Assembly: GCA_048937405.1 (NCBI GenBank)
Contig: JBHLNF010000001.1
Span: forward strand, 160,001-224,000
Direction: 5' to 3'
DNA from: Promethearchaeota archaeon
Lineage (GTDB): Archaea; Asgardarchaeota; Lokiarchaeia; Sigyniarchaeales; SOKP01
DNA: 64,000 nucleotides
The notes beneath the pieces are model-generated. The model was not told the origin of the DNA. It ran no database searches and worked only from the letters and a program-made list of their open reading frames with translations. Positions 34,268 to 55,133 of this stretch are shown here, piece after piece (position 1 is the first letter of the stretch; every line of letters starts with the position of its first letter). The position numbers and the translations under genes were made by a program.

Positions 34268-34463
34268 TGCGGTTTCTAATTTAAGGGATAAAAATAATTG
34301 AGATTCTCTTCAAAATTACATCTAACACTTATAAGTTTTATGATTTTTACGTGCTTAACCTAAAAGTTAAAATTCAATTGAACACTAAAAACCTTACCGG
34401 AATATGATTTATCAGAAAAAATTTACGGAATAATATTAATGGAATAAGCAGATTGGTTAAAAA

Positions 34464-35039
34464 ATGGCTCCAGATGAAAAGTCTGACGAAAGAGAATCAG
34501 AAGAAATGGAAGAAACATCACATAGAGATTTAGAAAAAGATTCAAATTCAGAAAAAGACATTGAAAGTGAATCTGAAACAGAATCAAGGGAAGAATTAGA
34601 AGAAAAAGGAGAATTAGACACGGAAGCAGAGTTAGATAGACTTAGGTTTAAATATAGAGGATTTACAATAGATGAGTTGAAGAAAATGAATATGGATCAA
34701 TTCATACAATTATTACCTGCCAGAGCTAGACGTTCTTTAAAACGAGGATTACCTCCAAGACAAAAAAAATTGCTAGAAAGATTGAGACGGGCATATCGTG
34801 CTAAAAAAAGAGGTAAAGATTTGGTTACCAGAACCCATGTAAGAGACATGATCATCTTTCCTGAAATGGTTGGTCTTAAAATAGGTGTCTACAATGGCAA
34901 AATATTTGAAATTGTTGATATAAGGCCAGAAATGATTGGACACTATTTAGGCGAGTTTTCTCTTACAAGAAAAAGAATACAACATGGGTCTCCAGGAATC
35001 GGAGCCACCAGAAGTTCGAAATATGTTCCATTGAAATAA
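34464..35039 (+). CDS. rps19: 30S ribosomal protein uS19 with acidic N-terminal extension
   Basis: [40 protein letters not shown]. Confidence 0.97.
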
Positions 35040-39524: not shown

Positions 39525-39543
39525 TGAGTTTAGGTGAAATAAA

Positions 39544-39693
39544 ATACCACAAGGCAAACATTTCGGTAAAGGCCAGAGAGAATGTAGAAGATGTCATACT
39601 CATAGAGGAGTAATACGACGGTATGGATTATATATATGTAGAAGGTGCTTTTATGAAATAGGAAAAGATATTGGATTTAAAAGATTTGAGTAA
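39544..39693 (+). CDS. rps14: 30S ribosomal protein uS14 (Zn-binding type); not in ORF track, apparent ATA start
   Basis: (M)[48 protein letters not shown]; in-frame TGA at 39535 upstream with no ATG/GTG/TTG between; GGTGA 6 nt before ATA. Confidence 0.9.
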
Positions 39694-39713
39694 TAATTAG
39701 AATAAAAAAAAGT

Positions 39714-39869
39714 GTGAATATCTATGACAAATACCATAGCAGATGCTTGTTGTGCCCTTAAAAATGCAGAAAGAGCACGTAAAAAGGAAGTTATTATTAG
39801 CCCTGCTTCTAAGGTTCTTCAACAAATTCTTCGAATATTCCAAAGACAAGCATATATTGGAGAATTCGA
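39714..39869 (+). repeat. Left copy of a 156-bp imperfect direct repeat (uS8 RBS + first 49 codons); partner at 54740-54895
   Basis: Direct comparison gives 5 mismatches (tct/att in the spacer, ACA/CCA, CTT/CTC, GGA/GGC). Confidence 0.97.
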
Positions 39870-39885
39870 AGTCTGTTTATTATAA
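39724..39885 (+). pseudogene. rps8: Truncated 5' fragment of uS8 at the canonical position after uS14
   Basis: MTNTIADACCALKNAERARKKEVIISPASKVLQQILRIFQRQAYIGEFE then VCLL*; matches the intact copy except T2/P2. Confidence 0.93.
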
Positions 39886-40245
39886 ATATTTTAAAACTAA
39901 ATTTCTAAACTCCTGTACTTTTATAGGTTTTGATATATATTGATTAAAACCAGATGACATAATACGTTCCTTATCTCCTTTCATTGCAAAAGAAGTTACA
40001 GCAATTATTGGTATATCTTTGAATTTTTCGATTTTTCTTAAATTTGAACAAATTTCTGTACCGTTCATTTCTGGTAATTGAATGTCTAGAATAATTAAAT
40101 CTGGATTACCTGATTTGATTAATTCAAATCCTAAATCACCTCTAGTTTCTTCAAAAATTTCAATATCGGGTATTAAATTTAAAATTGCTTTAAATAGCTT
40201 CATATTTTTTTCATTATCCTCAATAACATACACACTTTTTTTCAT
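39880..40245 (-). CDS. Single-domain response regulator (CheY/DivK-like receiver)
   Basis: IEDNEKN, LIILDIQLPEMNG, AVTSFAM, YISKPI. Confidence 0.93.
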   Translation of the reverse strand: MKKSVYVIEDNEKNMKLFKAILNLIPDIEIFEETRGDLGFELIKSGNPDLIILDIQLPEMNGTEICSNLRKIEKFKDIPIIAVTSFAMKGDKERIMSSGFNQYISKPIKVQEFRNLVLKYL

Positions 40246-40401
40246 AAATCATTACCTACTTTTTTATTGAAACATAAAGAGAATTACGTGAATAATTCTT
40301 TTAAGGAAATTTTCACCTATGACTTCTAGATAAATCATTTTAGCTAAGATATATAAATTTTTAGAAATCTAAAATTGAAATAGAAGAATTGCAAATTGAT
40401 T

Positions 40402-41949
40402 TTAAGGACAAAATTTTAATTTTAGTTCTTGAGCTATATTAGCCATTTTATTTAGTTCTTCATAATCTTTTTCAATTATTGATTTCATGATATCAACCTT
40501 TAACTTTTTAATTTTTTCAAGAGTAATAGAAAATTCTTTATTAATATCCTCATATAATTTGTCTATGTTGCTATAAAGAAGTTGAGCTTGATTTTTATCA
40601 ATAATCTCAGAATTAATTATCTTTCTTTGATAAAAAGTATTTAATTCTTCTAACCAATTCCTTCCAATTTCTCCTATTGGTAGTAGATCATCGATTTTTC
40701 CTGTATTTAGCCCCATTTCAAATTTATCCTTATATTCATCGAATAAATTCCTGAAATAATTGTTAATTTTATTTTCAATGGCTTCTAAGTTAATATTAGG
40801 ATTCATAAAAAGAGTTACAGTATAATTATTATAACTAAAAATATGCATTTTTAAATTACTTCCTCTCAAACCAAAACCGGTTAAATCCTGAATATTTAGT
40901 TCCAAAGAAAATTTCTCCAACGCACTTATAAACATTGGAATCAATTCAAGATCAATTGGAATTATACTATCATCATTTGGAACACTTTGAGAAATATAAT
41001 CTTTAATAGCATTATCATATAATTCAAAATTTAATAACGATAATCCATCTTTATCTGATATTATTGCTCCTATGATCCCTGAATTTTTTTCTTCAGTCGG
41101 AATTTCTAATAAAGGAAAATTTCTCTCATCTTTATCATTTGAGACGGAGAAAAAATTCTCCAAAACTTTTTTGTATATTACCTTACCTTTATTCGTTAAA
41201 CTTAGAAGTGATTCATTTTTTACCTCTTTTACTTCAATATGACCTTTATTAATTAAATTTTCAACTAAATAATTTACCAATTTCTCAGGACGATTCAATT
41301 TTTCATAAAGAATATCTTTAGCAATAATTACATTTTTATCAATTTGATGTATGATTTTCAATGATTCATCAACCATATTCAATAATAATCCTTCATTAGG
41401 TAAGACATCTTGAAGGCAAGTTTTCATAATTTCAATGAAATATGAAAAAGTCTGATGAAAGTATTCCTTTTTCAAACTGGTAAATCGAAAATTTATTAGA
41501 GTATCATTTGAGAAACTATTCTTAATTATCGATCTAATTTCTCTGATTTTCTTTTCACTTACCAAATCTATTTTATGTAATAATACAAAAATAAAGGTGG
41601 ATGGAGTAAGATCATTTCTTAAATCAATAACTTTTCTTACAAAATTAATGATCTCATCATTATTAGATTTAATGTCAATTACTACCAATATTAGTTTAGT
41701 GTCATAAAAAATTCTTTTTTCATCTGTTTCAAGCCATCGTTTATTTTCTTGACCAGCTAGATCAAATATACCAATATCTTCATTTAAACCTGGTAATCGC
41801 AATATTAATGATTCTTCTCCATATGTTGGGTCTAAAGCATATTCTAGTAACTTAGATGAACTTTCTCCTTCAAAAAAGACTTTACGAAGGGTTGTTTTCC
41901 CAGCATTTGGTGGTCCTACAAATATAATTTTTTTTCCTATTTTGATCAC
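40402..41949 (-). CDS. Rag/Gtr1-like small GTPase fused to a winged helix and a longin/roadblock-like domain
   Basis: G1 GPPNAGKT, G2 PTYG, G3 DLAGQ, G4 HKID; wHTH-like LVENLINKGHIE..LSLTNKGK; GAIISDKDGLSL..LIPMFISALEKFSLE. Confidence 0.75.
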   Translation of the reverse strand: MIKIGKKIIFVGPPNAGKTTLRKVFFEGESSSKLLEYALDPTYGEESLILRLPGLNEDIGIFDLAGQENKRWLETDEKRIFYDTKLILVVIDIKSNNDEIINFVRKVIDLRNDLTPSTFIFVLLHKIDLVSEKKIREIRSIIKNSFSNDTLINFRFTSLKKEYFHQTFSYFIEIMKTCLQDVLPNEGLLLNMVDESLKIIHQIDKNVIIAKDILYEKLNRPEKLVNYLVENLINKGHIEVKEVKNESLLSLTNKGKVIYKKVLENFFSVSNDKDERNFPLLEIPTEEKNSGIIGAIISDKDGLSLLNFELYDNAIKDYISQSVPNDDSIIPIDLELIPMFISALEKFSLELNIQDLTGFGLRGSNLKMHIFSYNNYTVTLFMNPNINLEAIENKINNYFRNLFDEYKDKFEMGLNTGKIDDLLPIGEIGRNWLEELNTFYQRKIINSEIIDKNQAQLLYSNIDKLYEDINKEFSITLEKIKKLKVDIMKSIIEKDYEELNKMANIAQELKLKFCP

Positions 41950-43260
41950 TTAAATTTTTTTATTGAAGTAATATATATTTTTTAATTTTTGTTTGATTTG
42001 ACCAATTGTCCAAATTAATTTATTTGCACTAAGAGTTTCTGAAAAACAAACTAAATTTTTAAGATTAAATTTTTGATAATTCAAACTGTTCATAATAATA
42101 TTCAAATTAGAACTTGAGAGAATTAAATGTTCAATTCTATCATTTTTAGATACATTTTCGAAAGTTTTATTTAATTGGGTTATAAGTTTATGCGAATGAT
42201 TGATAATTATCGTGTTAAAATCTTTCGTAATAGATTGTGCTACTATACTATCATTTAAATTAGTAATAAAAAACATAGTTTTTGAAAAATTTGATATCAT
42301 ACTATCCAACAGGTTCTTTAAGTGAAAAGTATATTTTGAAAAATTGCTTAATAATTCATAAAATGCATTATAAAGGCTATAAATTAAATTTGGATAAATA
42401 CTTGTATAATAAATAGACACATCAAATTTCATTTTTAAAATGTTTGTAAGGTCTTTAAGATACTCTTTTCTAGATCCTTTCTCTATTAAATCAATTTTAT
42501 GGATGAAAAGAATTAGTTGAGCAGTATAGGAGTTATCTTGTAAAATTTCAATGACTTGTTTGATATCCTCCATGATTAATTGTTCATTTGTAATCCATGT
42601 TGGATAATCAAAGAGATATACTATAAAGTCAGTATTCTCAAATGCTAGAATTTGGTCATTATTTTTATTATTTTCCAGAAGTTGACTGAGTTCTTGTCCA
42701 GAAGAATCAAATAAACCTACCTTCAAATCTAACCATGAATAAACTGATGGCGATATTCCTCGAGTCGGTTCTAAAGGATTTGTTATTAAATTTATTGGAT
42801 CATATCCTTCAAAGACAATTTTCTTAATAGTTGTTTTTCCTGTACCTGGTCTACCAATTATCAATATCTTTTTAGCTGAAGACTTAATAAAAAAAGTATC
42901 AATTTTCTCTTGGAAATATTTTTTTTTATCATCTTCAGATTTTCCTAAGAATTTTCTGGCAAATTTAATAAATTCAGATTTTTGATTATATAAATTAATC
43001 TTTTCTTTTTCTTCCAGTATAATAAGAATTATTTCATATCCAATCTCAGAAACTTTTGATTTATCACAATAACTAAGTATAATATTATCTTTATATGTAA
43101 TTTCAATTAACTCACCCTTCTTAAAATCATCTTCATAGGAATGAGTCATATATATTTTATTGATTAATTCATCCGTTAGTTTTAATTCTAAAGGATATTT
43201 CAGCTCAAGCGTAGCACCCATTTTAGTATCCCAACTAAAAAACGCTAAACCTTTAACCAT
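41950..43260 (-). CDS. Rag/Gtr1-like small GTPase with N-terminal longin/uDENN-like and C-terminal roadblock-like domains
   Basis: N-terminal FFSWDTKMGATLELKYP; GRPGTGKT, LEPTRG, DSSGQ, FIHKID, YYTSIY; C-terminal MFFITNLNDSIVA. Confidence 0.75.
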   Translation of the reverse strand: MVKGLAFFSWDTKMGATLELKYPLELKLTDELINKIYMTHSYEDDFKKGELIEITYKDNIILSYCDKSKVSEIGYEIILIILEEKEKINLYNQKSEFIKFARKFLGKSEDDKKKYFQEKIDTFFIKSSAKKILIIGRPGTGKTTIKKIVFEGYDPINLITNPLEPTRGISPSVYSWLDLKVGLFDSSGQELSQLLENNKNNDQILAFENTDFIVYLFDYPTWITNEQLIMEDIKQVIEILQDNSYTAQLILFIHKIDLIEKGSRKEYLKDLTNILKMKFDVSIYYTSIYPNLIYSLYNAFYELLSNFSKYTFHLKNLLDSMISNFSKTMFFITNLNDSIVAQSITKDFNTIIINHSHKLITQLNKTFENVSKNDRIEHLILSSSNLNIIMNSLNYQKFNLKNLVCFSETLSANKLIWTIGQIKQKLKNIYYFNKKI

Positions 43261-43266
43261 TAAATC

Positions 43267-45411
43267 TCAACTCTCTATTTTTTCTTTTAATTTTTTAGTT
43301 ATAGTAAAAGTAAATGTTGATCCTGTACCTAATACGCTATTAAATGTTATACTTCCTCCATGTAATTCTACAAGCCTTTTGGTTAATGATAATCCAAGTC
43401 CGGTCCCAGGAACAGAGCGTACATATGTAGAATCTACTCTTTTAAATTCCTTGAAGATCAGAGAAAAATCTTTTTGATCTATTCCAATACCTGTATCATT
43501 TACTTTAAAAACCCATTGACCATATTTTTCTTGTATTTTTACTGTAATTTGACCTTCAAGAGTAAATTTAATAGCATTACTTAAGAGATTCAATAAAATT
43601 TCTTTGAATCGAATTGGATCTGCATAAATATATTTTTTTTCATCTAATCCTTTAATCTTTAATTTAAGGTTCTTTCTATTATACATAGGCTTTAAGCTTG
43701 ATTTAATTTGTTCAAATATGTTATTTAATGAAACCTTTTGAATATTCAAGTTTATTTGTCCAGATTCTATTTTTGATATATCTAAAATATGTTTAATCAT
43801 ATCAAATTGATGTTCTGCAGAATTTTTTATATCGGTAACAAATTCCTTTTGTTCATCATTTATTTGACCATAAACACCCTCTAATAATAAATCAGAAAAT
43901 CCAATAATAGCATTTAAAGGAGTCCTTAATTCATGTGACATTGTAGCCATGAATTCTGTTTTAAACTGAGAAGACTTTACTATTTGATCCATGTATAATT
44001 TCTGCTGTTCAAGGGTTTTATTTAACTCTTTAGTTCTATCCTGAACTTTTTGTTCTAATTCATCTTTAAATTTCTCTTCTAAAAGTTCTGAGGTCTTTTT
44101 TTCAGTAATATCTTTAAAAATCAGTTGAAATAGAGTTCCAGGCTTCTGTTTTATAATAGAAGCTTGAATTTCAACCCAAATACTTTCTCCATCCTGTTTT
44201 TTTAACTCAACCTCAACAGGTTTTGGAAAATTATTTTCAAAATTGGCATGAAAAATTTTCTTAAAATAAAGCTTAACTTCAAAAGGAAAGAAGTTGATAA
44301 GCTCATCTATTGATTTTTGAATAAAATAATCCCTTTCATAACCAAATATTTTGTCTGTAGTAAAATTAGCATCAACAACAATTCCATTAAAGTTTATTAT
44401 TAATATGGCATTTGGTGAGTTATCAAATAAATCTTTGTATCTTTTTTCAACAAAAATTTGATCAGTTATATCCCTCGAAATAACAAGAATTCTCACTTGC
44501 CCATCTTTATTTATAAAATTTTTAAAATTACATTCATGCCATAGCCAATGGCCCTCTTTATGTTTAATTCGCAATTTTATAGTACTTTTTTCACTTTTTA
44601 ATGGATCTTTTAATAATTTTGATATCTTTCCTTTATCTTTTGGATGAAGAAAATCCAGATATGATTTTTCCAATATCTCTTTCTTTTTGTATCCTAGCAG
44701 TTTAAATGCTATTTTTTCATTAAAATATTTAACTATTAATTTCAAACTAAGAATTATGATTAAATCATTTATATTTTCTTCAATGCGAATATGTTTCTCT
44801 TCTGATTCTTTCAACATTTTTTTTATTATATAATGTTCTATACCATTTCCAATAATTTGTGAAGATAATCGTAAAATTGATAACTGTGTCTCATTCGACT
44901 CTTTATGTATTGAATCATTTAAATATCCAATAAATCCTGCTAAGTCTTTTCTAATATATAGTGGAAACACCAATAGAGATCTGATATTATTAAGATTTAA
45001 TAACCTTTTTGTAGCTTTTGCTTCATCAGTTAAACTAGAAATATCATAAATATTGATAATTTTTCCTTTTCTAAGTTGATTATTCCACCATGGAAATTTT
45101 AAAAGCCATGAATTGTTAAAGTATTCAAATAACGGTTTAATTCCTTTTGCACACCATTCATACGTATTTTTTAAATTAATCTCATTAAAATTAATAATAT
45201 ATAAAACAACCCGACTCGCTTTGTTTAAAAACCCAATATCACGTAATGTAGCATTAATAATATCATTAATCTCGATATCTCCAAAGAATCGAGATGAAAT
45301 TGTTGAAATCAAAGTTTCTAAATCTGACCAAAATTGAACCAGACATTTTACATTTTGTTTTACATCATTTTTTTCTCCAAAAATATTTTCTTTGTTGTGA
45401 ATTCCACTCAT
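43267..45411 (-). CDS. Cytoplasmic sensor histidine kinase (GAF-PAS-PAS-HisKA-HATPase)
   Basis: NTYEWCAKGI GAF, FLHPKD PAS, MSHELRTPLNAIIGF, NLLSNAIKF, DTGIGI, GTGLGL. Confidence 0.93.
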   Translation of the reverse strand: MSGIHNKENIFGEKNDVKQNVKCLVQFWSDLETLISTISSRFFGDIEINDIINATLRDIGFLNKASRVVLYIINFNEINLKNTYEWCAKGIKPLFEYFNNSWLLKFPWWNNQLRKGKIINIYDISSLTDEAKATKRLLNLNNIRSLLVFPLYIRKDLAGFIGYLNDSIHKESNETQLSILRLSSQIIGNGIEHYIIKKMLKESEEKHIRIEENINDLIIILSLKLIVKYFNEKIAFKLLGYKKKEILEKSYLDFLHPKDKGKISKLLKDPLKSEKSTIKLRIKHKEGHWLWHECNFKNFINKDGQVRILVISRDITDQIFVEKRYKDLFDNSPNAILIINFNGIVVDANFTTDKIFGYERDYFIQKSIDELINFFPFEVKLYFKKIFHANFENNFPKPVEVELKKQDGESIWVEIQASIIKQKPGTLFQLIFKDITEKKTSELLEEKFKDELEQKVQDRTKELNKTLEQQKLYMDQIVKSSQFKTEFMATMSHELRTPLNAIIGFSDLLLEGVYGQINDEQKEFVTDIKNSAEHQFDMIKHILDISKIESGQINLNIQKVSLNNIFEQIKSSLKPMYNRKNLKLKIKGLDEKKYIYADPIRFKEILLNLLSNAIKFTLEGQITVKIQEKYGQWVFKVNDTGIGIDQKDFSLIFKEFKRVDSTYVRSVPGTGLGLSLTKRLVELHGGSITFNSVLGTGSTFTFTITKKLKEKIES

Positions 45412-45476
45412 AATTTAACTTTAATTTAATCTATCTTATACATTTTTGATACAAATAATATCTATTCAATAAAAGA

Positions 45477-46166
45477 TCATTCACAATGATCTTTGGGAAA
45501 TTGTTCTTCAAGAGCTTTCATAATATCGTTGCAAGAATCCAAGATCATGTTAATGTAATTCATAATCTCAGGTCTAGATATTTTTCTATTTATATTTTGA
45601 TCTATTATTAACTCACCAAATCCTCGAATTGTGTTAATTCCACTCCGAATCTGCATATTTATGGATTCTAAAGGTAGGATTTCATCTTTTTGCATATAAA
45701 TCTTATTTATTTCTTTAATAAAATTCTCAAATTCATTTTTATCATCAGACAAAATTTTATTACGTTTAATTTTATGAAAAATCATTCCAATTTTTTTGAA
45801 ATGAAGTATTGGTATTATAGAATAGCCAACATCCCGAAGTAGTATTATAGCATATAATTGTTTTCCTCCCCTTGCTGATAAATCCTCTATTTCGATCTTA
45901 TAGATTTGGGCATAAAAATTATTAAAATCTAATATAACAAATTGATTTTTAGTATTTAGCGCGTCTCTTAAAAGATTTTTTACAAATTCTTCATTTTTCA
46001 GAGGAATTTGAGAATATAGGGCTCTTGGACCTAATGTATGATCATATTTTCCAATAATCATAATAAAAGGATATTTTTCTAAATTATGCTTAAGAGTTGA
46101 ATAAATATCAAGATTTTCCTCTTCACGTTTATTTTTAAATTGGATATCTTTTATAATTTCTTTCAT
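45477..46166 (-). CDS. Folliculin/SMCR8-like longin domain fused to a degenerate, His-less HisKA-like domain
   Basis: YDHTLGPRALY and IEDLSARGGKQLYAIILL; C-terminal INMQIRSGINTIRGFGELI aligns with SHELRTPLNAIIGFSDLL of the neighbouring kinase. Confidence 0.62.
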   Translation of the reverse strand: MKEIIKDIQFKNKREEENLDIYSTLKHNLEKYPFIMIIGKYDHTLGPRALYSQIPLKNEEFVKNLLRDALNTKNQFVILDFNNFYAQIYKIEIEDLSARGGKQLYAIILLRDVGYSIIPILHFKKIGMIFHKIKRNKILSDDKNEFENFIKEINKIYMQKDEILPLESINMQIRSGINTIRGFGELIIDQNINRKISRPEIMNYINMILDSCNDIMKALEEQFPKDHCE

Positions 46167-46375
46167 TTTTTTTCCATGTAAATTAAATGATATATACTAA
46201 ATCTTAAGAATAAAAAAATCCTTATTGAAAGAAGTTTTTTATCCTTAGAATGATTTCTAAATTAATTGGAAAAGAATTGATATTTAATCTTTACTATTTA
46301 ATAAAGTGTATGAGTTATTAGGAAAAAAAAGAAATTTTTGTACAAATTTATATAATAGAAGCATATTAATAATTT

Positions 46376-47860
46376 ATGTCGGAATCCGCAAATACTATTA
46401 TAAAATATTTCTGCGATCGCTTTTTAGATATTGAATACTATCCTTCTAATTTGAAGGCAATTTTGGATTTTGATTTGCATAAAATAAAAAATATTAAAAA
46501 AGAAGATTTGCTGAAATTCCAGAAATTTAATATAAAAACCTTTCGAGATCTATGTAATTTAGATCAATCTGATTATGATCGGTTGATAAATCATTCATTT
46601 ATAGAAAAAAATCTACTAAATAATATTATTATTGCAGCAACTTTAATTGCTAATTCATGGAATAAAAGAAGTATTTACTTGAATAAACCAAAAATGAAAG
46701 TTGTTGTGGCTGGTCTTGATTTTGCAGGTAAAACATCTTTAATTAATAGATTGATTCACGATTATAACTACAATGATATGAATAATATTGAGCCAACAAT
46801 AGGGACAAATATAGAAGAATATCACTCAAAATGGCTGAATTTAATATTATGGGACTTAGGTGGCCAAAAGGATAATATAAATGAATATTTAGAATCTCCA
46901 GAAAAATTTTTTGTACAATTAGATGTTTTAATTTTTGTCATTGATGCCCAAGATGATAATAGATATAATGAAGCGGTTCGTTATTTGAATGATTTAATTG
47001 AAATATTTACATTTTTAAATGAAAATCCATATATCCTTGTATTGATAAATAAAGTAGATTCTGATATAGCAGAGGATCCAGATTTTCAAATTAAACTTGA
47101 ATATTTAATGGATAAAATAACTAATATCTTTATTAATAGTCAAAAATCATGGAATTTTGAGCTCATACCTACAAGTATCTATAATTTTTATTCTTCAGAA
47201 CCCGAGATTGCTAAAAGCATTAAAAAAATCTTTACAAAAGAAAAATCAGAAACACATTTGGATACTATAACGGAAATTAATGAGAAATTAGAAAGAATTT
47301 TAAATATAAACCTAGAATTAATGGATAAAATAGTATCTGATTTTTCCAAAATAAAACAAACCTTATTTAGATTTACACACTCTAATGTTTCTCAATCACT
47401 ATTTAACATTCCAATTCAGGATGTTCCCTGCAAGAATAGTTTTGATAAACAAAAAACAAATCAGAAAGATAGGACAAAGAAAAAAGAATCGAAAAAAAAA
47501 GAATTAAAAAAGAGAGAAAGAATAAAAAAAGTTATAGGTCCCCCGAAACGTTTAGAATCTATTATATCACCAAATGAAATTACACAAAATATAAAAAATA
47601 ATCATAAAATTACTGAAGAAAAATTGAAAGAAATAAAAAACGATTTAACCCCAACTCCTAAATCGTCTGATTTACGATCAACCCCACCAATAGCTCCTAA
47701 AAAAGGTTATTTAAGTAAAGCTGATCTTAAACCTCCACCCCCGCCACCAAAAATTGCAATTAAAAATGATACTTCATTACAAGGGAATAGAAAACAAATT
47801 ATTTCAGAATTAAAGGAATTATTTATAAGAAGAGGGTTAGTCCCTCATAAAAATATTTAA
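46376..47860 (+). CDS. Arf-like small GTPase with N-terminal helical domain and a long Lys/Pro-rich C-terminal tail
   Basis: VVAGLDFAGKTS, EPTIG, WDLGGQ, FVIDA, NKVD; PPPPPK near the C-terminus. Confidence 0.82.
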   Translation: MSESANTIIKYFCDRFLDIEYYPSNLKAILDFDLHKIKNIKKEDLLKFQKFNIKTFRDLCNLDQSDYDRLINHSFIEKNLLNNIIIAATLIANSWNKRSIYLNKPKMKVVVAGLDFAGKTSLINRLIHDYNYNDMNNIEPTIGTNIEEYHSKWLNLILWDLGGQKDNINEYLESPEKFFVQLDVLIFVIDAQDDNRYNEAVRYLNDLIEIFTFLNENPYILVLINKVDSDIAEDPDFQIKLEYLMDKITNIFINSQKSWNFELIPTSIYNFYSSEPEIAKSIKKIFTKEKSETHLDTITEINEKLERILNINLELMDKIVSDFSKIKQTLFRFTHSNVSQSLFNIPIQDVPCKNSFDKQKTNQKDRTKKKESKKKELKKRERIKKVIGPPKRLESIISPNEITQNIKNNHKITEEKLKEIKNDLTPTPKSSDLRSTPPIAPKKGYLSKADLKPPPPPPKIAIKNDTSLQGNRKQIISELKELFIRRGLVPHKNI

Positions 47861-48400
47861 TTATCGTTTAGAACAAATGAAAAATATTATAATTCGTATG
47901 AATTGTCTTTTTAATATTCAATTTTATCGGATTATAAAATTTATATTCCGCTCTTTTCCCTAACTTATTAGAATGTGATGTTCTCCATCATATTATTTTA
48001 TTTGTATTTATTTAAAGTGTGTTTTATATTCCAAGATAAAATTTTTTCTTAAGATCTATTTTAAACTTATATCTAAATCAGTTTGAATGAAATAAATCTT
48101 GAAATCATTAAATTAAGGACTTTAGCAAGATAAAAAGATAATTTAATTCAAACTTATCAAATCTTATAATAAAGTGAATTTTTTATCTTTTACTTCTTAT
48201 GATTTCTACTACTATTCACAAATATGGAAGCGAAATATAAAGAATTACTTTAATACCTGTAATAAATCAAGTTTCTAACTAGTAAATTCAACTTTTTTTA
48301 CTAGTAATTTGTGATTTTTTAATGGACTATGCATTTCGAAAAAATTAAAAATATGAAATTTATTGCTTTTATGGAGTAATTAATAGAACATTATTTTATT

Positions 48401-50746
48401 ATGCGGAAAAAAATTCAATCATTAGAAAAATTCAAAATAAAAAATAGACCTTTTAATCATAATATTTTAGAGGTTATAGTAGAAATAAATCTAGATGGAA
48501 AGTTTATTTGTTTTAGTCCACAGGTTTATGATCTTTTCGGTTTTCGACCAAAAAAGTTAATCAAGCTAAATGAACAAAATTTCATCCATCCAGAAGATTT
48601 ATCACTTTATAGAGAAGTAATTGATAAGGTAAAAAACTTTAAAGAAACATTTATTGTAGATTTAAGAGTGAAGCACAATAAGGGATATTATGTCCCAATT
48701 TCATTAAAGGTTAATTTAATCTTACCTAATAATACAAAAAAAATAATTGGTATAATAAGAGATATTTCAGATATCAAAATTTCCAAGTTAAAATTTAAAG
48801 AATCTAAAGAGAAATATCTAAACATTATCAATAATATGATGGAAGGATATTTTGAAATTGATCTTAAGGGAAATTTTTTATATGCTAATGTGTATTTCTG
48901 TAAAACATTAAATTATTCTAAGGAAGAATTAATAGGAAAAAATTATCATTTTATTTATGAAAAAAAGACATGCGAACGTTTATTTAATATATTCACCCAA
49001 ATATATAAGACAGGGATACCTCATCCTCCAGAAGAAGTAATTAAAGTGGTAACAAATAAGGGTAAACTATTATATGTTGAAGGATCTATTCATTTATTAT
49101 ATGATTCTGAAGGATATAAGGTTGGATTTTATGGCTTAGCTCATGATACAACAAAAGAGATAAAAAACAATCAAAAATTAAAAGAATTCGAATTGAAATA
49201 TAGCAATATTCTCGAAAATATGATGGAAGGGTATTATGAAACTGATCTTAGGGGAAATTTTATATATGTTAATGCTGAGTATTGCAAAATTTTGGGATAT
49301 TCAAAAAAAGAATTATTAGGAAAGGATTATAGAACCTTTTATAATGTAGAGGGATTGAGTAATTTACAGAGTATTTTTACCAAAATATATAAAACTGGGA
49401 TACCTCACGCTCCAACAGGATTAGTAAAATTGGTGACAAAGAAAGGTAAACTTATATATTTTGAAGGTCCTGTTGATTTAATATATAGTTCGAAAGGAAA
49501 AAAGATAGGATTTTATGGGCTTATTCGTGATATAACAAAAAGAAAAATTGCGGAACAAAAATTAAAAGAGTCCGAAGAGAAATATCGAAGCATACTCGAA
49601 AATATGATGGAAGGATATTATGAAGTGGATTTAGAAAACAATATCATTTTTTTTAATGATTCTTTTAATAAGATATTAGGACATCCAAAAGAGAAATTAT
49701 CAAATGAAAAATTTGATTGGTTTTTAAGTTCTCATAGTAAAAAGAGATTTTCCTTACTTTTTAATAATTTATTAGAGAATAAAATGTCATTTTTAATTTC
49801 CCAGTTTGAAATAATAAATCAAAAAGGAGAAATTATAAATGTCGAAACTTCAATATATCAAAAACAAGATATGAAAGGAAATATAATCGGATTCGGAGGA
49901 TTATTGCGGGACATTTCTGAAAGGATGCAAATCGAAGAAATGAGAGAAGAATTTACTGAAGAACTCCAAAATCAAGTAGTTCAAAGAACTCAGGAACTAA
50001 ATGAAGCATTAGAAAAGCAAGAATTATACATTCAAGAGATATTGAAGTCTTCTCGTTTTAAAAGCGAATTTATGTCTGTGATGTCCCATGAGCTGAGGAC
50101 ACCTATGAATGCCATCATAGGTTTTTCTGATCTTTTGATGGAGGGGGATTTTGGTCAACTTAATGAAAATCAAAAAGACTTCTTATATGATATAAAAGGG
50201 TCTGCTAACCACTTACTAAATATAATTAATCATATACTTGATATCTCGAAAATAGAGTCAGGTAATTTGAATTTGAAGATAAAAAAGATTCAACTGGATA
50301 TAGTTATAAAACAAGTCAAAGGAACACTTAAAACTTTATTTGATAATAAGAATTTAACATTTAAGGTGATTGGGTTGAAAAAGAATAAGGTTATCAATGT
50401 AGATCCTATAAGGTTTAAAGAGATTCTTTTCAACCTATTAAGCAACGCAATTAAATTCACCTTAAAAGGAATTATTACTTTGAAAATTTCTGAAGATGAG
50501 ATGCTATGGAAATTTGACGTGATTGATACAGGTATTGGTATAGCTAAGGAAAATTTAGGGTTTATTTTTATGGATTTTAGAAGAATTGATGATCCCCATG
50601 TAAATTCAACAGAAGGAACTGGACTTGGCCTTTCTGTTACAAAAAGACTAGTCGAGCTCCATGGTGGAAGTATCAGTTTTACAAGCGAATTTGGGAAAGG
50701 ATCTACATTTTCCTTTACAATTCCTAAAGATTTAAAAGAAGGGTAA
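48401..50746 (+). CDS. Cytoplasmic sensor histidine kinase (4x PAS-HisKA-HATPase)
   Basis: Repeated NMMEGY.E.DL PAS starts; MSHELRTPMNAIIGF, NLLSNAIKF, GTGLGL. Confidence 0.93.
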   Translation: MRKKIQSLEKFKIKNRPFNHNILEVIVEINLDGKFICFSPQVYDLFGFRPKKLIKLNEQNFIHPEDLSLYREVIDKVKNFKETFIVDLRVKHNKGYYVPISLKVNLILPNNTKKIIGIIRDISDIKISKLKFKESKEKYLNIINNMMEGYFEIDLKGNFLYANVYFCKTLNYSKEELIGKNYHFIYEKKTCERLFNIFTQIYKTGIPHPPEEVIKVVTNKGKLLYVEGSIHLLYDSEGYKVGFYGLAHDTTKEIKNNQKLKEFELKYSNILENMMEGYYETDLRGNFIYVNAEYCKILGYSKKELLGKDYRTFYNVEGLSNLQSIFTKIYKTGIPHAPTGLVKLVTKKGKLIYFEGPVDLIYSSKGKKIGFYGLIRDITKRKIAEQKLKESEEKYRSILENMMEGYYEVDLENNIIFFNDSFNKILGHPKEKLSNEKFDWFLSSHSKKRFSLLFNNLLENKMSFLISQFEIINQKGEIINVETSIYQKQDMKGNIIGFGGLLRDISERMQIEEMREEFTEELQNQVVQRTQELNEALEKQELYIQEILKSSRFKSEFMSVMSHELRTPMNAIIGFSDLLMEGDFGQLNENQKDFLYDIKGSANHLLNIINHILDISKIESGNLNLKIKKIQLDIVIKQVKGTLKTLFDNKNLTFKVIGLKKNKVINVDPIRFKEILFNLLSNAIKFTLKGIITLKISEDEMLWKFDVIDTGIGIAKENLGFIFMDFRRIDDPHVNSTEGTGLGLSVTKRLVELHGGSISFTSEFGKGSTFSFTIPKDLKEG

Positions 50747-50750
50747 AGAT

Positions 50751-51131
50751 TTGATAAAAAAAATATTTATCATTGATGATTATGAGAGAAATTTAAGGTT
50801 ATATAAAGCGACATTTAATGGTGCCCCTAATTTAGATATCATTACGGAGAGAGATGGGATAAAAGGTTTAGAGATGTTAAAAGAGAGTAATCCAGATCTG
50901 ATTATTTTAGACTATAAACTAACAAATATAACTGGTGTTGAGATATGCAAAGAGTTAAGAAAAATAGAAAAATTCAAAGATATTCCAATAATTATGGTTT
51001 CTTCAACCCCTATTGAAAAAGATGTTGATAGAGCAACCTATTTTAAGGAAGCTGGTTTTAATTTATATTTCTCAAAACCAATAAACATTAAAAAATTTAG
51101 AGAAATCATAAAAAATCTATTATTCAAATAA
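50751..51131 (+). CDS. Single-domain response regulator
   Basis: IIDD, PDLIILD, MVSS, FSKPI. Confidence 0.9.
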   Translation: MIKKIFIIDDYERNLRLYKATFNGAPNLDIITERDGIKGLEMLKESNPDLIILDYKLTNITGVEICKELRKIEKFKDIPIIMVSSTPIEKDVDRATYFKEAGFNLYFSKPINIKKFREIIKNLLFK

Positions 51132-51376
51132 TCATCTAATAAAACAATACTAGATTAAGTAGAACTATACTTTATAGATTTAAGTTTTTATTCCTTTGTT
51201 CTATAATTAGATTTTACTTTATAATTTTTTAAATATTTATTACCATATTATTTCTTTAAATAATTTAAAATTTCTGAGATTTGTAATTATTATGAAAGCT
51301 CTAATTAGATATGAATAATCTAACTGGTGGATTCTTTCTGTATCATTGTTTAATATTTCGAATTATGACATCTTCA

Positions 51377-52114
51377 TTAGGCAAGAATGTAAGGTTTTTC
51401 GTTTATCTCAGGAATCAAAATTATGAAATTACTACCCTTTTTATAATCCCCTTTCACTTTATCTTCCACCCAGATATAACCATTATATTTCTTTATTAAT
51501 TTTTTAACAAGAGTTAGTCCAAAACCCATTCCATTCAAACATTCTCGGATTTCATACTCTTTTTGAAAAATAGATTTTTTCCTTGCATTGGTAATACCAA
51601 CTCCGTTATCAATAAATTCGATTTTAACAAAAGAAGTATTATTCAGAATTATTTTTGAGACGTTAATTAATATTTGAATATTTGAGTTTTTATTGTGATA
51701 TATTGCATTAAATATAATATTCTCAAATACATTCTGCAATAATTTATCTCCTTGAACATATAATCCATTAAAATATGATTTTCGAATGCTTGAATAGTTG
51801 AAATTAATTTTTATATTATTTTCAGGAAATGATGATTCAATATATTCTATGGATGTCTTTAATAAATGGAGAACATCAATAGGTTGAAGAGAATTGTTAG
51901 AATCATCAAAATTAGTTACATTTTTCACATTTGAAATTATTTGAATTCCCCTCATCACCTGTTTATTTATAATATTCATACAAATTCTCATTTGTTCAGG
52001 TTTGGTTAAAGAAAAAGAGCAAAGTTGTAGAGAAGACTGAATAATATGAAGAATAGTCCCAAAATCATGAATTAAAATATCTCCATATGTATCAAATACA
52101 TTTTTTTTCTCTAT
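51377..52114 (-). CDS. Sensor-less histidine kinase (HisKA + HATPase); frame extends upstream of the ORF-track start to an apparent ATA start
   Basis: In-frame upstream of ATG 51991: IEKKNVFDTYGDILIHDFGTILHIIQSSLQL (H-box), bounded by TGA within GGTGA; NIIFNAIYH, DNGVGI, GMGFGL. Confidence 0.75.
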   Translation of the reverse strand: MEKKNVFDTYGDILIHDFGTILHIIQSSLQLCSFSLTKPEQMRICMNIINKQVMRGIQIISNVKNVTNFDDSNNSLQPIDVLHLLKTSIEYIESSFPENNIKINFNYSSIRKSYFNGLYVQGDKLLQNVFENIIFNAIYHNKNSNIQILINVSKIILNNTSFVKIEFIDNGVGITNARKKSIFQKEYEIRECLNGMGFGLTLVKKLIKKYNGYIWVEDKVKGDYKKGSNFIILIPEINEKPYILA

Positions 52115-52328
52115 TGTTTGTCACCAATTATGATGCTAATTATTTTTATTGAATTTTTTTTATCTTTCTTATAAAGATTTAATTGTATTTTATGGTAAAA
52201 TTTGGATTACAATACTATAAAGATTGACATTTCTATAAAAAAACTTATATTTAAATCTTTTTTTTCCAAAAAGGTGTATTACAATAAAGATCATTTAATT
52301 TTTGAAATGAGTTTTTCATCTGTAAATT

Positions 52329-52730
52329 TTAACTTATAATACTATTATTTATTTTAATGTCCTTCCTTTTTAATATTTTTAAAACAGTTTTAAATAATTT
52401 TTCTAAAGAAAATGGTTTATCTAAAAAATATTTTGCTCCTTTGGATAAAGCTTCAATCTTAATTTTATTATCTGCACTAGCAAATATTATTTTTGCTGTA
52501 TTTTCAATCTTTAAGATTTCTTCAAGGATTTGAATACCGTTTTTATTTGGCATTCGATAATCCAAAATTATAATATCAGGTTTTTTATATAAATTCTTGA
52601 ATAATGAAATGGCTTCTTCTCCATCACCTGTTAGACCTAATATCTTATAACCCTTACTTTCTAGAGCCATTTTGTAAAACCTTCTTAATTGGTTATCATC
52701 CTCTGCTATAAAGATTGATGACATATTCAT
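52329..52730 (-). CDS. Single-domain response regulator
   Basis: IAEDD, PDIIILDYRMPNKNG, FASA, LDKPF; overlaps the kinase stop (ATGA). Confidence 0.92.
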   Translation of the reverse strand: MNMSSIFIAEDDNQLRRFYKMALESKGYKILGLTGDGEEAISLFKNLYKKPDIIILDYRMPNKNGIQILEEILKIENTAKIIFASADNKIKIEALSKGAKYFLDKPFSLEKLFKTVLKILKRKDIKINNSIIS

Positions 52731-54007
52731 TGTACCTCCGGAAGTTTAAGAATAAATTTACTCCCTTTGGTATAATCCTCTGGAATCTTGTTTTCAACCC
52801 AAATTTTAGCATTAAATATATCTAAAATACTTTTGACAAGCGATAATCCTAATCCTAATCCACTAAGGCTTTTATTCATCCCAAAATCCCTAGTAAAAAG
52901 ACTTTGTTTCCTTGAATCGGGAATACCTACTCCATTGTCAATAAACTCGACCTTAAAAAATTTTTTTCCCTCTTCTTGAATGTGAGAGATCTTGATTAAT
53001 ATCTCAACAATTGAATTATCATTATGAATAACAGCATTAAGGAGAATATTTTCAAATATATCAAATATGAATTTATTTGCCACAATGAAAAAATTTTGTA
53101 GCTTGGTTTCAATTAGAATTTTCATTTCCCTTTTCTCTGTCCTTTTTTTGAGGTTATTAATTGCTTCTTCTAATATTTCTTTAAAATCTAGTTTTTCTAA
53201 AAATGTTTCAGATTCTAAAATTATGCTAAATTTTCTAACATTCCTAATTAAGTGTGTTCCCCTGTCAATTTGTTCTTTAATCAATTTTATTGATTCGTTT
53301 TCAGTTAAATCTCCAGTAATTTTTAAGTCTTGTTCAAATAATTCTAAACCCATTAATATGTTTTGAAGAATGTTATTAATATCATGAACGAAAAGATCCT
53401 TATAAAAACATTCTCTATTATACGCTTCTTGATATTTTTCAATAGATTTCTCGAAATTGGATACAGAAAACCATGTTATGAATGCAATAAGTACATAAAT
53501 GTTTAATCCAATAAAATTAGGAAAGAATCCATTGATAAAGCAAATAAGTAAATTGACAAAAATAATGAAAAATGTCATAATAAAACTCATATATGGGGTT
53601 ATTAAAAATCCAGCCATAATAATAGGTAACACAAGCTGAAGAAGAGATCTGCCTAAGACAAGTTCATAGGGAGTATCTGAGAGAAAAATAAGTATAGTTA
53701 CTAGTACTAGAAAAGTGCTAATGGCTAATTTATTAGACAAATAGTTATTTACCAAGAAAATAACAATACCTCCGAAAAAAGCAAATGTGGATAAACCTAA
53801 TATCAAAATTGTCTCTTTATTTCCTCCAATAGGAGATCCAATGATGAAGAAACTAAGATATATTAAAATAATCAAACCATCTGCAGATTCTATTCCAAGA
53901 AGTAAAATATTGAGAACTTTTTTTTTTCTCATTTCCTCTAGATCTTTTTTATGAATCAAAAAAAAATAATTTAGAATTCTCTTTATAAATGAACTCACCA
54001 TTTGCAC
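52727..54007 (-). CDS. Membrane-bound histidine kinase (~6 TM + HisKA + HATPase)
   Basis: TM bundle, LFVHDINNILQ, NILLNAVIH, DNGVGI, GLGLGL. Confidence 0.9.
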   Translation of the reverse strand: MQMVSSFIKRILNYFFLIHKKDLEEMRKKKVLNILLLGIESADGLIILIYLSFFIIGSPIGGNKETILILGLSTFAFFGGIVIFLVNNYLSNKLAISTFLVLVTILIFLSDTPYELVLGRSLLQLVLPIIMAGFLITPYMSFIMTFFIIFVNLLICFINGFFPNFIGLNIYVLIAFITWFSVSNFEKSIEKYQEAYNRECFYKDLFVHDINNILQNILMGLELFEQDLKITGDLTENESIKLIKEQIDRGTHLIRNVRKFSIILESETFLEKLDFKEILEEAINNLKKRTEKREMKILIETKLQNFFIVANKFIFDIFENILLNAVIHNDNSIVEILIKISHIQEEGKKFFKVEFIDNGVGIPDSRKQSLFTRDFGMNKSLSGLGLGLSLVKSILDIFNAKIWVENKIPEDYTKGSKFILKLPEVQ

Positions 54008-54739
54008 CCTTAACTAAAAAACAAGAATGATTATAGAATAATAGAATTAATATTTAAATTTAGCCATATTTGTCAGGAATAATTAGCAAACAAATAAATA
54101 CAACTCTTCTCAAATTTCAAGATTGTTATTAATTAACTTATTTCTTCCTATTTTTGTCTAAAAAATAATTTTAGATAATTTATAATAATATCTTCAGTTT
54201 TTAAGCTTTTTAAGAGTAAAGGAAGATTAAATAAGAATCTTGGATTAGTATCAATATATTAGACAAGTTAATAAACATTTTTGGTTATAATAAGAATAGA
54301 AGAGAAATTATATAAAATAAAATTTGAGTTAACATTGGATTTCGCCCTCTATTAACCTTAAAGTAGGTTATTCTCCTCCTCACATTTTAAACTCAAGTTT
54401 TTTCTTCCCTTCTCCTCAAGTTTTAAGATAAGGTTGTTAAGTAGAGATAAATCCTAATATGACTCTTTCAATGTTTAGATCCTTGTTTCTAGGTCAAGCG
54501 CAATCAAATTTTTATTACTGGAAAGAAAAAGCAAAAGAAGATAATTAATTTTTTCTAATTAAATAATTTTTAAGTTTTATGGTTTTATTTTAGATTTCAA
54601 TATCAATTAATAAAATTAAAATTTAATCCATTACTAATTAGAACAATACGGAGTAATGGATGGAAAAAACTAAAATAATAATTCTGGATATTGTTCCTGA
54701 TTTTATTAATTAAAATAAGATAAGAAATTTTAGGAAAGA

Positions 54740-54895
54740 GTGAATAATTATGCCAAATACCATAGCAGATGCTTGTTGTGCCCTCAAAAATGCAGAAAGA
54801 GCACGTAAAAAGGAAGTTATTATTAGCCCTGCTTCTAAGGTTCTTCAACAAATTCTTCGAATATTCCAAAGACAAGCATATATTGGCGAATTCGA
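54740..54895 (+). repeat. Right copy of the 156-bp rps8 5' repeat
   Basis: Matches 39714-39869 with 5 mismatches. Confidence 0.97.
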
Positions 54896-55133
54896 GAGGT
54901 ATGATGACGGAAGGCAAGGAAAATTTAAGATAGCATTATTAGGTAAAATTAATGAGTGTGCAGGATTAATGAGATTAAATTATAAATTATCTCAATTTGA
55001 GATGTTAGAAAGAAAATTATTACCAGCTCCAGGATTAGGCATTATAATTTTTACAACAAATCAAGGTATAATGACGATGAGTGAAGCAGAAGAAAATCAT
55101 ATTGGTGGGCATACTTTATGTTATATTTATTAA
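54750..55133 (+). CDS. rps8: 30S ribosomal protein uS8 (intact copy)
   Basis: YIGEFERYDDGRQGKF, LGKINEC, TTNQGIMT..A..IGG. Confidence 0.97.
   Translation: MPNTIADACCALKNAERARKKEVIISPASKVLQQILRIFQRQAYIGEFERYDDGRQGKFKIALLGKINECAGLMRLNYKLSQFEMLERKLLPAPGLGIIIFTTNQGIMTMSEAEENHIGGHTLCYIY

Follow-up and report, generated by a model that had tools for sequence, protein, structure and literature searches.

The window analysed here, a stretch of 64,000 nucleotides from the Lokiarchaeia-type genome that is labelled G000 in our genome set, contains a ribosomal protein operon that starts with uS19 and is interrupted between uS14 and uS8 (Table 1). uS14, which has no ATG, GTG or TTG start codon and whose Pfam match was obtained on the 49-aa gene call of a second assembly, is followed by a short uS8 reading frame and then by an island of unrelated genes. 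Behind the island uS8 starts again, is complete this time and leads into uL6, eL32, eL19, uL18, uS5, uL30 and uL15. The copies of the uS8 5' end form a direct repeat of 161 nucleotides with 96% identity and a spacing of 15,026 nucleotides, and 14,865–14,880 nucleotides (about 14.9 kb) lie between them. An earlier note on this DNA had described a 15-kb island that splits rps8 and repeats the ribosome-binding site and the first 49 codons at exactly this distance, with a copy after uS14 that stops at 53 codons and a complete copy after the island; the repeat alignment and the reading frames agree with this description. The number of mismatches given there, five in 156 bp, has to be corrected to six in 161 nucleotides, of which three precede the ATG, within 15 nucleotides, and three fall in the coding part of 146 nucleotides. 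A degenerate extension of the duplication as far as the stop codon of uS14 is possible, which would bring its length to approximately 175 nucleotides. The uS8 5' repeat is present in exactly two copies in the whole genome, and among the 120 sampled genomes of the family only G000 has two. The 53-codon reading frame is read as a dead pseudogene stub; the working gene is the one on the right.

Table 1. Features of the split ribosomal protein operon and of the island within it (positions in the window).
Feature	Position	Strand	Basis and remarks
Conserved non-coding block	34323..34403	+	Upstream of uS19, first gene of the operon
uS14	39535..39695	+	Final intact gene of the proximal half-operon; translation and Pfam Ribosomal_S14
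Repeat copy A	39709..39869	+	Ribosome-binding region and uS8 codons 1-49, canonical site after uS14
Truncated uS8 ORF	39724..39885	+	53 codons: 49 of uS8 and 4 unrelated
Left junction	39870..39879		About 8-10 nt of unassigned filler; uS8 homology to its left, homology to the response-regulator flank in relatives to its right
Segment A	39880..47860	both	Pfam; syntenic orthologues elsewhere in six species
Response regulator	39880-40245	-	Segment A; Pfam
Gtr1/RagA-like GTPases, two	40402-41949, 41950-43260	-	Segment A; Pfam
PAS histidine kinase	43267-45411	-	Segment A; Pfam
229-aa protein	45477-46166	-	Segment A; sub-threshold folliculin match
Arf-like GTPase	46376-47860	+	Segment A; Pfam
Histidine kinase, three PAS domains	48401-50746	+	Pfam
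Response regulator	50751-51131	+	Pfam
HATPase_c-only gene, 204 aa	51377-51991	-	Pfam
Response regulator	52329-52730	-	Pfam
Membrane histidine kinase	52727-54007	-	Pfam
Structured repeat element	54299..54414	+	In the spacer; multicopy in the genus
Paralogue of the uS19-upstream block	54567..54655	+	95-183 nt upstream of the uS8 ATG
Repeat copy B	54735..54895	+	Start of the full uS8
Intact uS8	54750..55133	+	127 aa; Pfam Ribosomal_S8

The cargo of the island consists of two-component genes and genes for Rag/Arf-like GTPases. Its left end is abrupt: the uS8 homology stops at position 39869 and the stop codon of the minus-strand response regulator follows 10 nucleotides on (39880-39882), as the earlier note had also seen, and no microhomology is evident at this joint. 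Internal repeats of 384 nucleotides (family D1) are found within 48401..51131, and the only long inverted repeat (I1) is a pair of paralogous response-regulator genes. A Pfam search of all called genes revealed no recombinase, transposase, excisionase, replication, conjugation or virus genes in the island and its flanks, which bears out the lack of a recombinase noted before. Scans of island and spacer with Rfam and for tRNA genes found nothing, including an Rfam match for the structured repeat element in the spacer, and the island has no terminal inverted repeats. A transposon or composite IS was rejected, since neither terminal inverted repeats nor a transposase were found. The G+C content of the island is 25.05%, the 0.7th percentile among genome windows, which is compatible with exchanged DNA; the orthologous cluster in G003 and G005 is likewise low in G+C.

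The block of 14.9 kb between uS14 and uS8 is a genuine chromosomal insertion. The same gene order is present in a separately deposited public assembly of the same strain (GCA_048937415.1), in a contig of 125.6 kb compared to 1.05 Mb in G000, with 100% and 99.995% identity. The sole difference between both assemblies lies within copy B, where one of them has the base of copy A, and both contain the integrated form alone. The evidence for the junctions comes from two assemblies of one strain and from the right junction, which is common to another species, G053.

The left 8 kb of the island (segment A) have syntenic orthologues at another chromosomal locus in six species (G003, G005, G045, G066, G012 and G051), with 70–77% nucleotide identity, similar to that of the flanking genes. 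In G003, G005 and G045 the segment is located between the orthologues of G000 C17:177483 and C17:177524. A cut-and-paste transfer from contig C17 was considered and dropped because most species, among them the nearest relative G044, have nothing at this site; a flanking duplication at the site was found in neither G003 nor G045. The counterpart of 50462-54179 is contiguous in G044, with 91% identity, and adjoins eS26 there, and the island of G053 lacks 51904-54444. Since orthologues of the left part are found elsewhere in six species and the right part adjoins eS26 in the nearest relative, the cargo is, judged by these comparisons, native material from the flexible gene pool of the genus. The idea of an imported element is not upheld.

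The earlier note had also proposed comparing the adjacency of uS14 and uS8 in related genomes. They are contiguous in 49 of the 53 other species of the genus, and in these as well as in G044 and G051 the unit that corresponds to the 161-nucleotide repeat is single-copy and contiguous with uS14. A uS8 that is detached from uS14 was found in G053, in G018 (in which the left side of the split is unassembled) and in the JGI metagenome contig L115, and the cargo that separates the operon halves varies between species. In G053 (contig C218) island sequence is joined to the same uS14-uS8 intergenic spacer and uS8 as in G000. There is no stub in G053; its left junction consists of uS14 followed by a second uS14, 74% identical. 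A second copy of the uS8 5' end is absent from the 119 other genomes of the family, and exact-match scans of metagenome contigs detected neither the stub-to-cargo junction nor the copy-B junction. The protein collection contains other short reading frames for the uS8 N-terminus; these are genes that an insert of 29–30 nucleotides interrupts, and not stubs. Inserts of this size are present in uS8, uS14 and uS3 of relatives, and their minimum-energy folds gave no clear bulge-helix-bulge motif.

The right junction is shared with G053 and the promoter-like block next to it also with the distant G018 and the metagenome contig, thus these comparisons date the split of the operon to before the G000 genome. 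The stub is specific to G000; the separation at this point is shared with G053, G018 and L115. In the tree the intact G044 is sister to the split G053, so the history requires loss or transfer. A transfer of the distal half-operon into G018 was rejected: the identity of this half to G000 (76%) is in line with that of the proximal half (73%) and also with that of other species.

A conserved non-coding block upstream of uS19, found also in G012, G021, G008, G018, G022 and G069, is probably the promoter or 5' leader of the operon, to judge from its conservation. G000 contains only two copies of this type of block, and the second is located upstream of the intact uS8. The same subfamily precedes uS8 in G053, G018 and the JGI contig L115; the uS8-upstream copies of G000, G053 and G018 are 72–92% identical to each other and 45–59% identical to the copies upstream of uS19, which marks them, on sequence identity, as a distinct paralogue lineage. 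This paralogue is probably the promoter or leader of the distal half-operon from uS8 to uL15, and it would be the expression signal that, according to the earlier note, the island had to supply, likely at its right end. Its conserved AT-rich box (54607-54624) is a candidate archaeal promoter (BRE/TATA) by conservation and paralogy. A general ribosomal promoter motif was discarded, as the short AT-rich core also precedes unrelated genes and only the block of about 80 nucleotides is specific.

Relatives have similar scars at a number of positions in this operon, with inserts of 0.1 to 15 kb that are bounded by duplications of 46–161 nucleotides. In G022 140 nucleotides of the uS5 5' end are duplicated around 2.3 kb and a uS3 fragment shows the same architecture, in G044 about 75 nucleotides of the eS4 3' end are duplicated around 4.65 kb, and G067 has a perfect repeat of 55 nucleotides in uL22.

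The locus can best be described as a chromosomal insertion without a recombinase, in which 14.9 kb of native signalling genes are bracketed by a duplication of the uS14-uS8 spacer and the uS8 5' end; we give this reading a probability of roughly 60%. The arrangement looks like a recombination scar of the kind described in bacteria and not like a self-mobile element. The duplication would have been left by homologous recombination through the uS8 5' segment and not by site-specific integration. It might have arisen by a single-crossover (Campbell-type) event, or else a "split" and an "intact" operon allele may have recombined with each other and left one illegitimate joint at codon 49. Some substitutions that are specific to G000, for example at alignment column 50, occur in both copy A and copy B, thus the stub is recent or has been homogenised; gene conversion could have kept the copies alike since the event. 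Copy B is a mosaic, as the 30 nucleotides before codon 3 are identical to G053 and the coding part is of the G000 type, which is explained better by recombination or gene conversion than by a target duplication in place. The proximal half of the operon would be transcribed from the uS19 promoter and end at the stub, and the distal half would be transcribed from the duplicated block.

Other explanations have to be weighed against this one. In line with the circular element inferred in the earlier note, a circle of island, promoter block and rps8 fragment might loop out by host homologous recombination and re-enter any genome via the conserved rps8 sequence. Direct repeats of 161 nucleotides with 96% identity suffice as recombination substrates and recombination between them would restore a perfect operon. 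The distribution of the split allele and its promoter paralogue is patchy (present in G000, G053, G018 and L115 compared to the intact close relatives G044 and G024), the cargo varies while the promoter-uS8 end is constant, the island is low in G+C, and the sole difference between the assemblies is a base of copy A within copy B. We nevertheless regard such a circle as unlikely, since the left stub occurs in only one of the 120 family genomes, its junction is on no other contig, the left junction of G053 differs, and the divergence of the promoter paralogue (75% identity between G000 and G018) approximates that of the genomes, which fits descent better than recent spread. It is likewise doubtful that the promoter block and the rps8 5' fragment form a portable, homology-based docking site with which a reversible split-operon allele circulates among Lokiarchaeial species; if true, the cargo would be exchangeable and the scars in uS5, uS3, eS4 and uL22 would result from the same process at other ribosomal genes.

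An insertion in place by replication or repair, with template switching or staggered-break fill-in, would have copied the insert from another source or ligated it out of one and duplicated the 161 nucleotides in the same event. The scars at other sites of the operon and their variable repeat lengths, as reported for bacteria (PMC2853133), point in this direction, but the genome contains no second copy of the cargo, which copy-and-paste template switching should have left, the right junction is older than the stub and copy B is the mosaic described above. We consider this origin improbable. Direct repeats at the ends, a restored target gene and a variable presence are also what a classical integrative element would show, with the repeats as attL and attR and an integrase that was lost or acts in trans. 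Such an element is very improbable here: the genes for recombination, excision, replication, conjugation or virus functions are missing from island and flanks, the repeats have considerable length and contain mismatches, the element would have targeted the 5' end of a protein gene and not a tRNA, and chromosomal clusters in relatives are orthologous to the cargo. Finally, two strains or loci might have been misjoined at the rps8 repeat, as this is a metagenome-type assembly with an estimated contamination of 5.69%. That is hardly credible, since joining two sequences wrongly at a repeat that they share cannot produce the new joint between uS8 codon 49 and the end of the response-regulator gene, the structure lies within a 1.05-Mb contig and is seen again in the separately deposited assembly, and the right junction was found independently in another species. 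The six differences between the repeat copies count against a collapsed-repeat artefact as well, as the earlier note had argued from the mismatches.

The ribosomal protein cluster is the most conserved gene arrangement of prokaryotes, and the building of genomes from metagenomes and their placement in trees routinely rely on it as a single marker block without interruptions. Here we find an Asgard genus in which this cluster is being dismantled: insertions land inside it, duplication of part of the interrupted gene lets that gene survive, and the half that has become detached is preceded by a copy of the upstream block of the operon. This provides a case, traceable between species, of a long essential operon turning into units that are probably transcribed independently, an arrangement as in eukaryotes. 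For annotation it means that a 53-codon "S8" reading frame together with a second S8 on the same contig need not signal contamination.

Several known systems share parts of this architecture. In integrase-borne islands, too, a disrupted target is rebuilt by sequence at one end of the island; they use 3' ends of tRNA or protein genes, whereas here a 5' end is rebuilt, the cargo is native, and an integrase, a short att core and a tRNA are missing. As in a Campbell-type insertion-duplication, the insert is located between two homology copies, with one truncated and one complete gene, and recombination between the repeats would reverse the event; however, the unit of cargo and fragment was found in no other genome (119 family genomes and metagenome contigs), and neither a circular form nor a vector backbone was observed outside G000. 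[quoted passage not shown] It is similar in that a homologous anchor (here uS8 and the downstream genes) and one illegitimate joint (here uS8 codon 49 to the end of the response-regulator gene) would bring in neighbouring non-homologous DNA with no need for a mobility gene. Clusters of translation genes that are split by unrelated gene blocks in particular lineages have been reported (Brandis et al. 2019, PMC6735719; Brandis 2021, PMC8046335). Those insertions are located between operons, whereas this one lies inside an spc-type operon, at the 5' end of a gene, and is accompanied by a second copy of the upstream block.

Insertion with long target duplication (Nobusato et al. 2000; Furuta, Abe and Kobayashi 2010, PMC2853133) was described for bacterial restriction-modification genes, with repeats of 46–423 bp that often overlap a gene end. 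It is defined by an insert below 20 kb, the absence of mobility genes, a direct duplication of more than 30 bp and a target that is single-copy in insert-free relatives, and according to that survey no archaeal case survived its screen. At our locus the insert measures 14,865–14,880 nucleotides, the duplication is 161 nucleotides long with a single-copy target in G044, G051 and 49 of 53 species, and no mobility gene (by Pfam), tRNA gene or terminal inverted repeat was found. Our locus differs in its signalling cargo, in its target, an essential ribosomal gene that is hit at the 5' end within an operon, and in the paralogue of the operon's own upstream block that accompanies the restored gene. 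The split uS8 locus carries this class of insertion into the archaea and beyond restriction-modification genes as cargo.

The uS8 gene of the genome under study (G000; 4.47 Mb in 29 contigs) has its 5´ end duplicated around a block of signalling genes of about 14.9 kb, the island, as the earlier note had observed; the same order is found in a separate assembly. The window corresponds to C7:160001-224000 of G000. The duplication is a direct repeat of 161 nt with 96% identity and a spacing of 15,026 nt. It is the sole long repeat bracketing the region in the window, it occurs twice and no more in the whole genome, and among 120 sampled family genomes only G000 has two copies. The six mismatches comprise three in the 15 nt 5´ of the ATG and three in 146 coding nt. 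The homology of copy A stops at its last nucleotide, 39869, and the first island gene has its stop codon 10 nt beyond.

Features of the uS8 region and its relatives (window positions unless a contig, C, or a relative locus or metagenome contig, L, is named; other G numbers are genomes of relatives)
Feature	Coordinates	Description
Copy A	39709-39869	after uS14; starts 53-codon ORF 39724-39885 (stub)
Copy B	54735-54895	starts complete uS8, 127 aa
Segment A	39877 to ~47860	left ~8 kb of island
Island, right part	50462-54179	91% identical to G044:C10, there adjoining eS26
Spacer block before uS8	54567-54655	89 nt
Conserved block 5´ of uS19	34323-34403	homologous to spacer block
Structured element	54299-54414; C28:326074-326327	~115 nt, two G000 copies
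Response regulators		island, n=3
Histidine-kinase genes		island, n=4; 2 with PAS domains, 1 HATPase_c only
GTPases		island, Gtr1/RagA-like n=2, Arf-like n=1
229-aa protein		island, folliculin match below threshold
uS8 inserts	L109:742-770; L113 ~4139-4168; L115; L116	29-30 nt
uS14 insert (G053)	L080	reverse strand
uS3 insert (G018)	L036 ~3345-3375	

The two junctions differ in age. Aligned to copy B, the G044 and G051 sequences extend back to 54714-54722, the position of the uS14 stop codon. Copy B matches G053 at all of the 30 nt preceding codon 3 and differs there from copy A. Over codons 3-49 both copies have G000-specific states in common and differ from each other at two sites, compared with about 17 differences for G053 and about 9 for G044. 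Judged from these sequences, the right junction predates the stub. A tree of 832 nt gave (G000,(G044,G053)) and placed G018 in a distant clade next to the intact G024. This topology and the shared G000-specific states show that the split allele, in which uS8 is detached from uS14, is patchily distributed, and that the stub is either a recent product of the G000 line or owes its continued similarity to gene conversion.

Based on locus coordinates, 49 of the 53 other species of the genus have uS14 directly followed by uS8, while the two are split in G053 and G018, and G005 and G050 are not judgeable; uL5-uS14-uS8-uL6 are neighbours in 27 of 29 loci compared. The cluster is already interrupted in the genus between uL2 (on contig C25) and uS19. 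Four JGI metagenome contigs (L109-L112) and L116 start 130-600 nt 5´ of uS8 in non-coding DNA without uS14, thus the boundary is broken in further Lokiarchaeial lineages as well. G053:C365 carries two tandem uS14 genes (L080 422-805), first the native one with a 29-nt insert and then a 49-aa copy with a nucleotide identity of only 74%; beyond them come an unrelated ORF on the minus strand and the contig end, which is rich in G+C. The window uS14 lacks an ATG, GTG or TTG start at 39526-39545; its frame opens past the TGA within GGTGAAATAAAATA, in agreement with the ATA/ATT starts read earlier at 6 nt downstream of GGTGA. For uS19 (34464-35039), an apparent acidic extension of ~75 residues at the N-terminus and the in-frame ATG at 34464 are kept across the genus; the deposited annotation has the 117-aa core only.

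The detached uS8 is preceded by a spacer block, a putative promoter or leader to go by its position and conservation, and a profile search of the G000 genome returned this block and the one 5´ of uS19 only. The uS8-upstream copies of G000, G053 and G018 form a separate lineage (72-92% mutual identity, 45-59% to the uS19-upstream copies); between G000 and G018, the uS19-upstream copies have 87% identity. In JGI contig L115 a block of this subfamily precedes uS8, which there follows a minus-strand gene instead of uS14; no paralogue of the block was detected 5´ of uS8 in L109-L112 or L116. The helices of the nearby structured element are nested: GGGA/TCCC, then AATTTGAGC/GCTCAAATT as a stem of 9 bp, and an inner hairpin that co-varies; up to 7-8 copies occur in several species of the genus, often at contig ends, and an Rfam search with it gave no match.

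At 25.05% G+C, the island falls at the 0.7th percentile of equally sized windows of the genome, and the orthologous cluster in G003 and G005 is likewise below its flanks. Syntenic orthologues of segment A (70-77% nucleotide identity) are located in G003, G005, G045, G066, G012 and G051 between the orthologues of G000 C17:177483 and C17:177524. A cut-and-paste from C17 was considered and dropped: most species, the nearest relative G044 among them, have no interruption at this site, and therefore segment A is a variably present cassette of the flexible gene pool of the genus, a translocation not being demonstrable. G053 holds island pieces with 84-89% identity, and its contig C218 joins 51218-51903 straight to 54445 and continues through uS8. 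The three PAS domains of a 781-aa kinase are tandem 384-nt units (48790-49714; 67-76% identical), and two single-domain response regulators (39880-40245 and 50751-51131) form an inverted pair of paralogues with 71% identity over 141 nt.

Similar scars are found in the genus. G022:C12 (L105) has the ribosome-binding region and first ~45 codons of uS5 duplicated (140 nt) around a 2.3-kb insert, the left copy being a stub and the right one the complete gene, and a uS3 fragment remains after uL22. At the eS4/uL5 boundary of G044:C14 (L101 1483-6330), about 75 nt from the 3´ end of eS4 are present twice, on either side of 4.65 kb of unrelated genes (DUF362-like, sulfotransferase-like and chemoreceptor-like). 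The uL22 gene of G067:C3 (L106) holds a perfect 55-nt repeat, and the G018 operon ends 21 codons into uL14. G042 and G069 (L107, L108) have 1.5-1.9 kb inserted between uL22 and uS3, a boundary split over separate contigs in G003. Furthermore, ribosomal-protein ORFs of related Lokiarchaeia are broken by 29-30-nt inserts with stop codons or a frame shift. These have a 6-9-bp hairpin followed by a ~10-nt tail, their stems co-vary between lineages and their removal restores the frame; those in uS8 follow codon 46 or 48, 5-11 nt from the end of the copy A homology. Such inserts might represent mini-introns or elements for translational bypass; a clear bulge-helix-bulge fold was not seen in them.

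One rival explanation, judged improbable, is an assembly chimera. In GCA_048937415.1, deposited separately (125.6-kb contig), the gene order is unchanged, with identities of 100% and 99.995%, and over 39 kb the assemblies differ at one base, 54833 within copy B, the window carrying the base of copy A there. This variant fits gene conversion within the population and could equally be a polishing error from read cross-mapping.

Among biological origins, a self-propagating circle anchored by homology is close to the earlier reading of a recombined circular element carrying a uS8 5´ fragment. That reading holds in part: the island contains no recombinase, and likewise no transposase, virus or plasmid gene, no tRNA and no matched Rfam family. 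The same gene content counts against an element that has lost its integrase. An in-place insertion via replication or repair is a further rival. The preferred reading is that a split and an intact allele recombined through the 5´ segment of uS8, with one illegitimate joint. This route best accounts for the mosaic structure of copy B and for a right junction older than the stub.

The G000 structure qualifies as an insertion with long target duplication as defined in PMC2853133, and its topology is that of a Campbell-type insertion-duplication. The favoured route would resemble homology-facilitated illegitimate recombination (PMC3240628). The island is a further, archaeal member of an already known kind of rearrangement.
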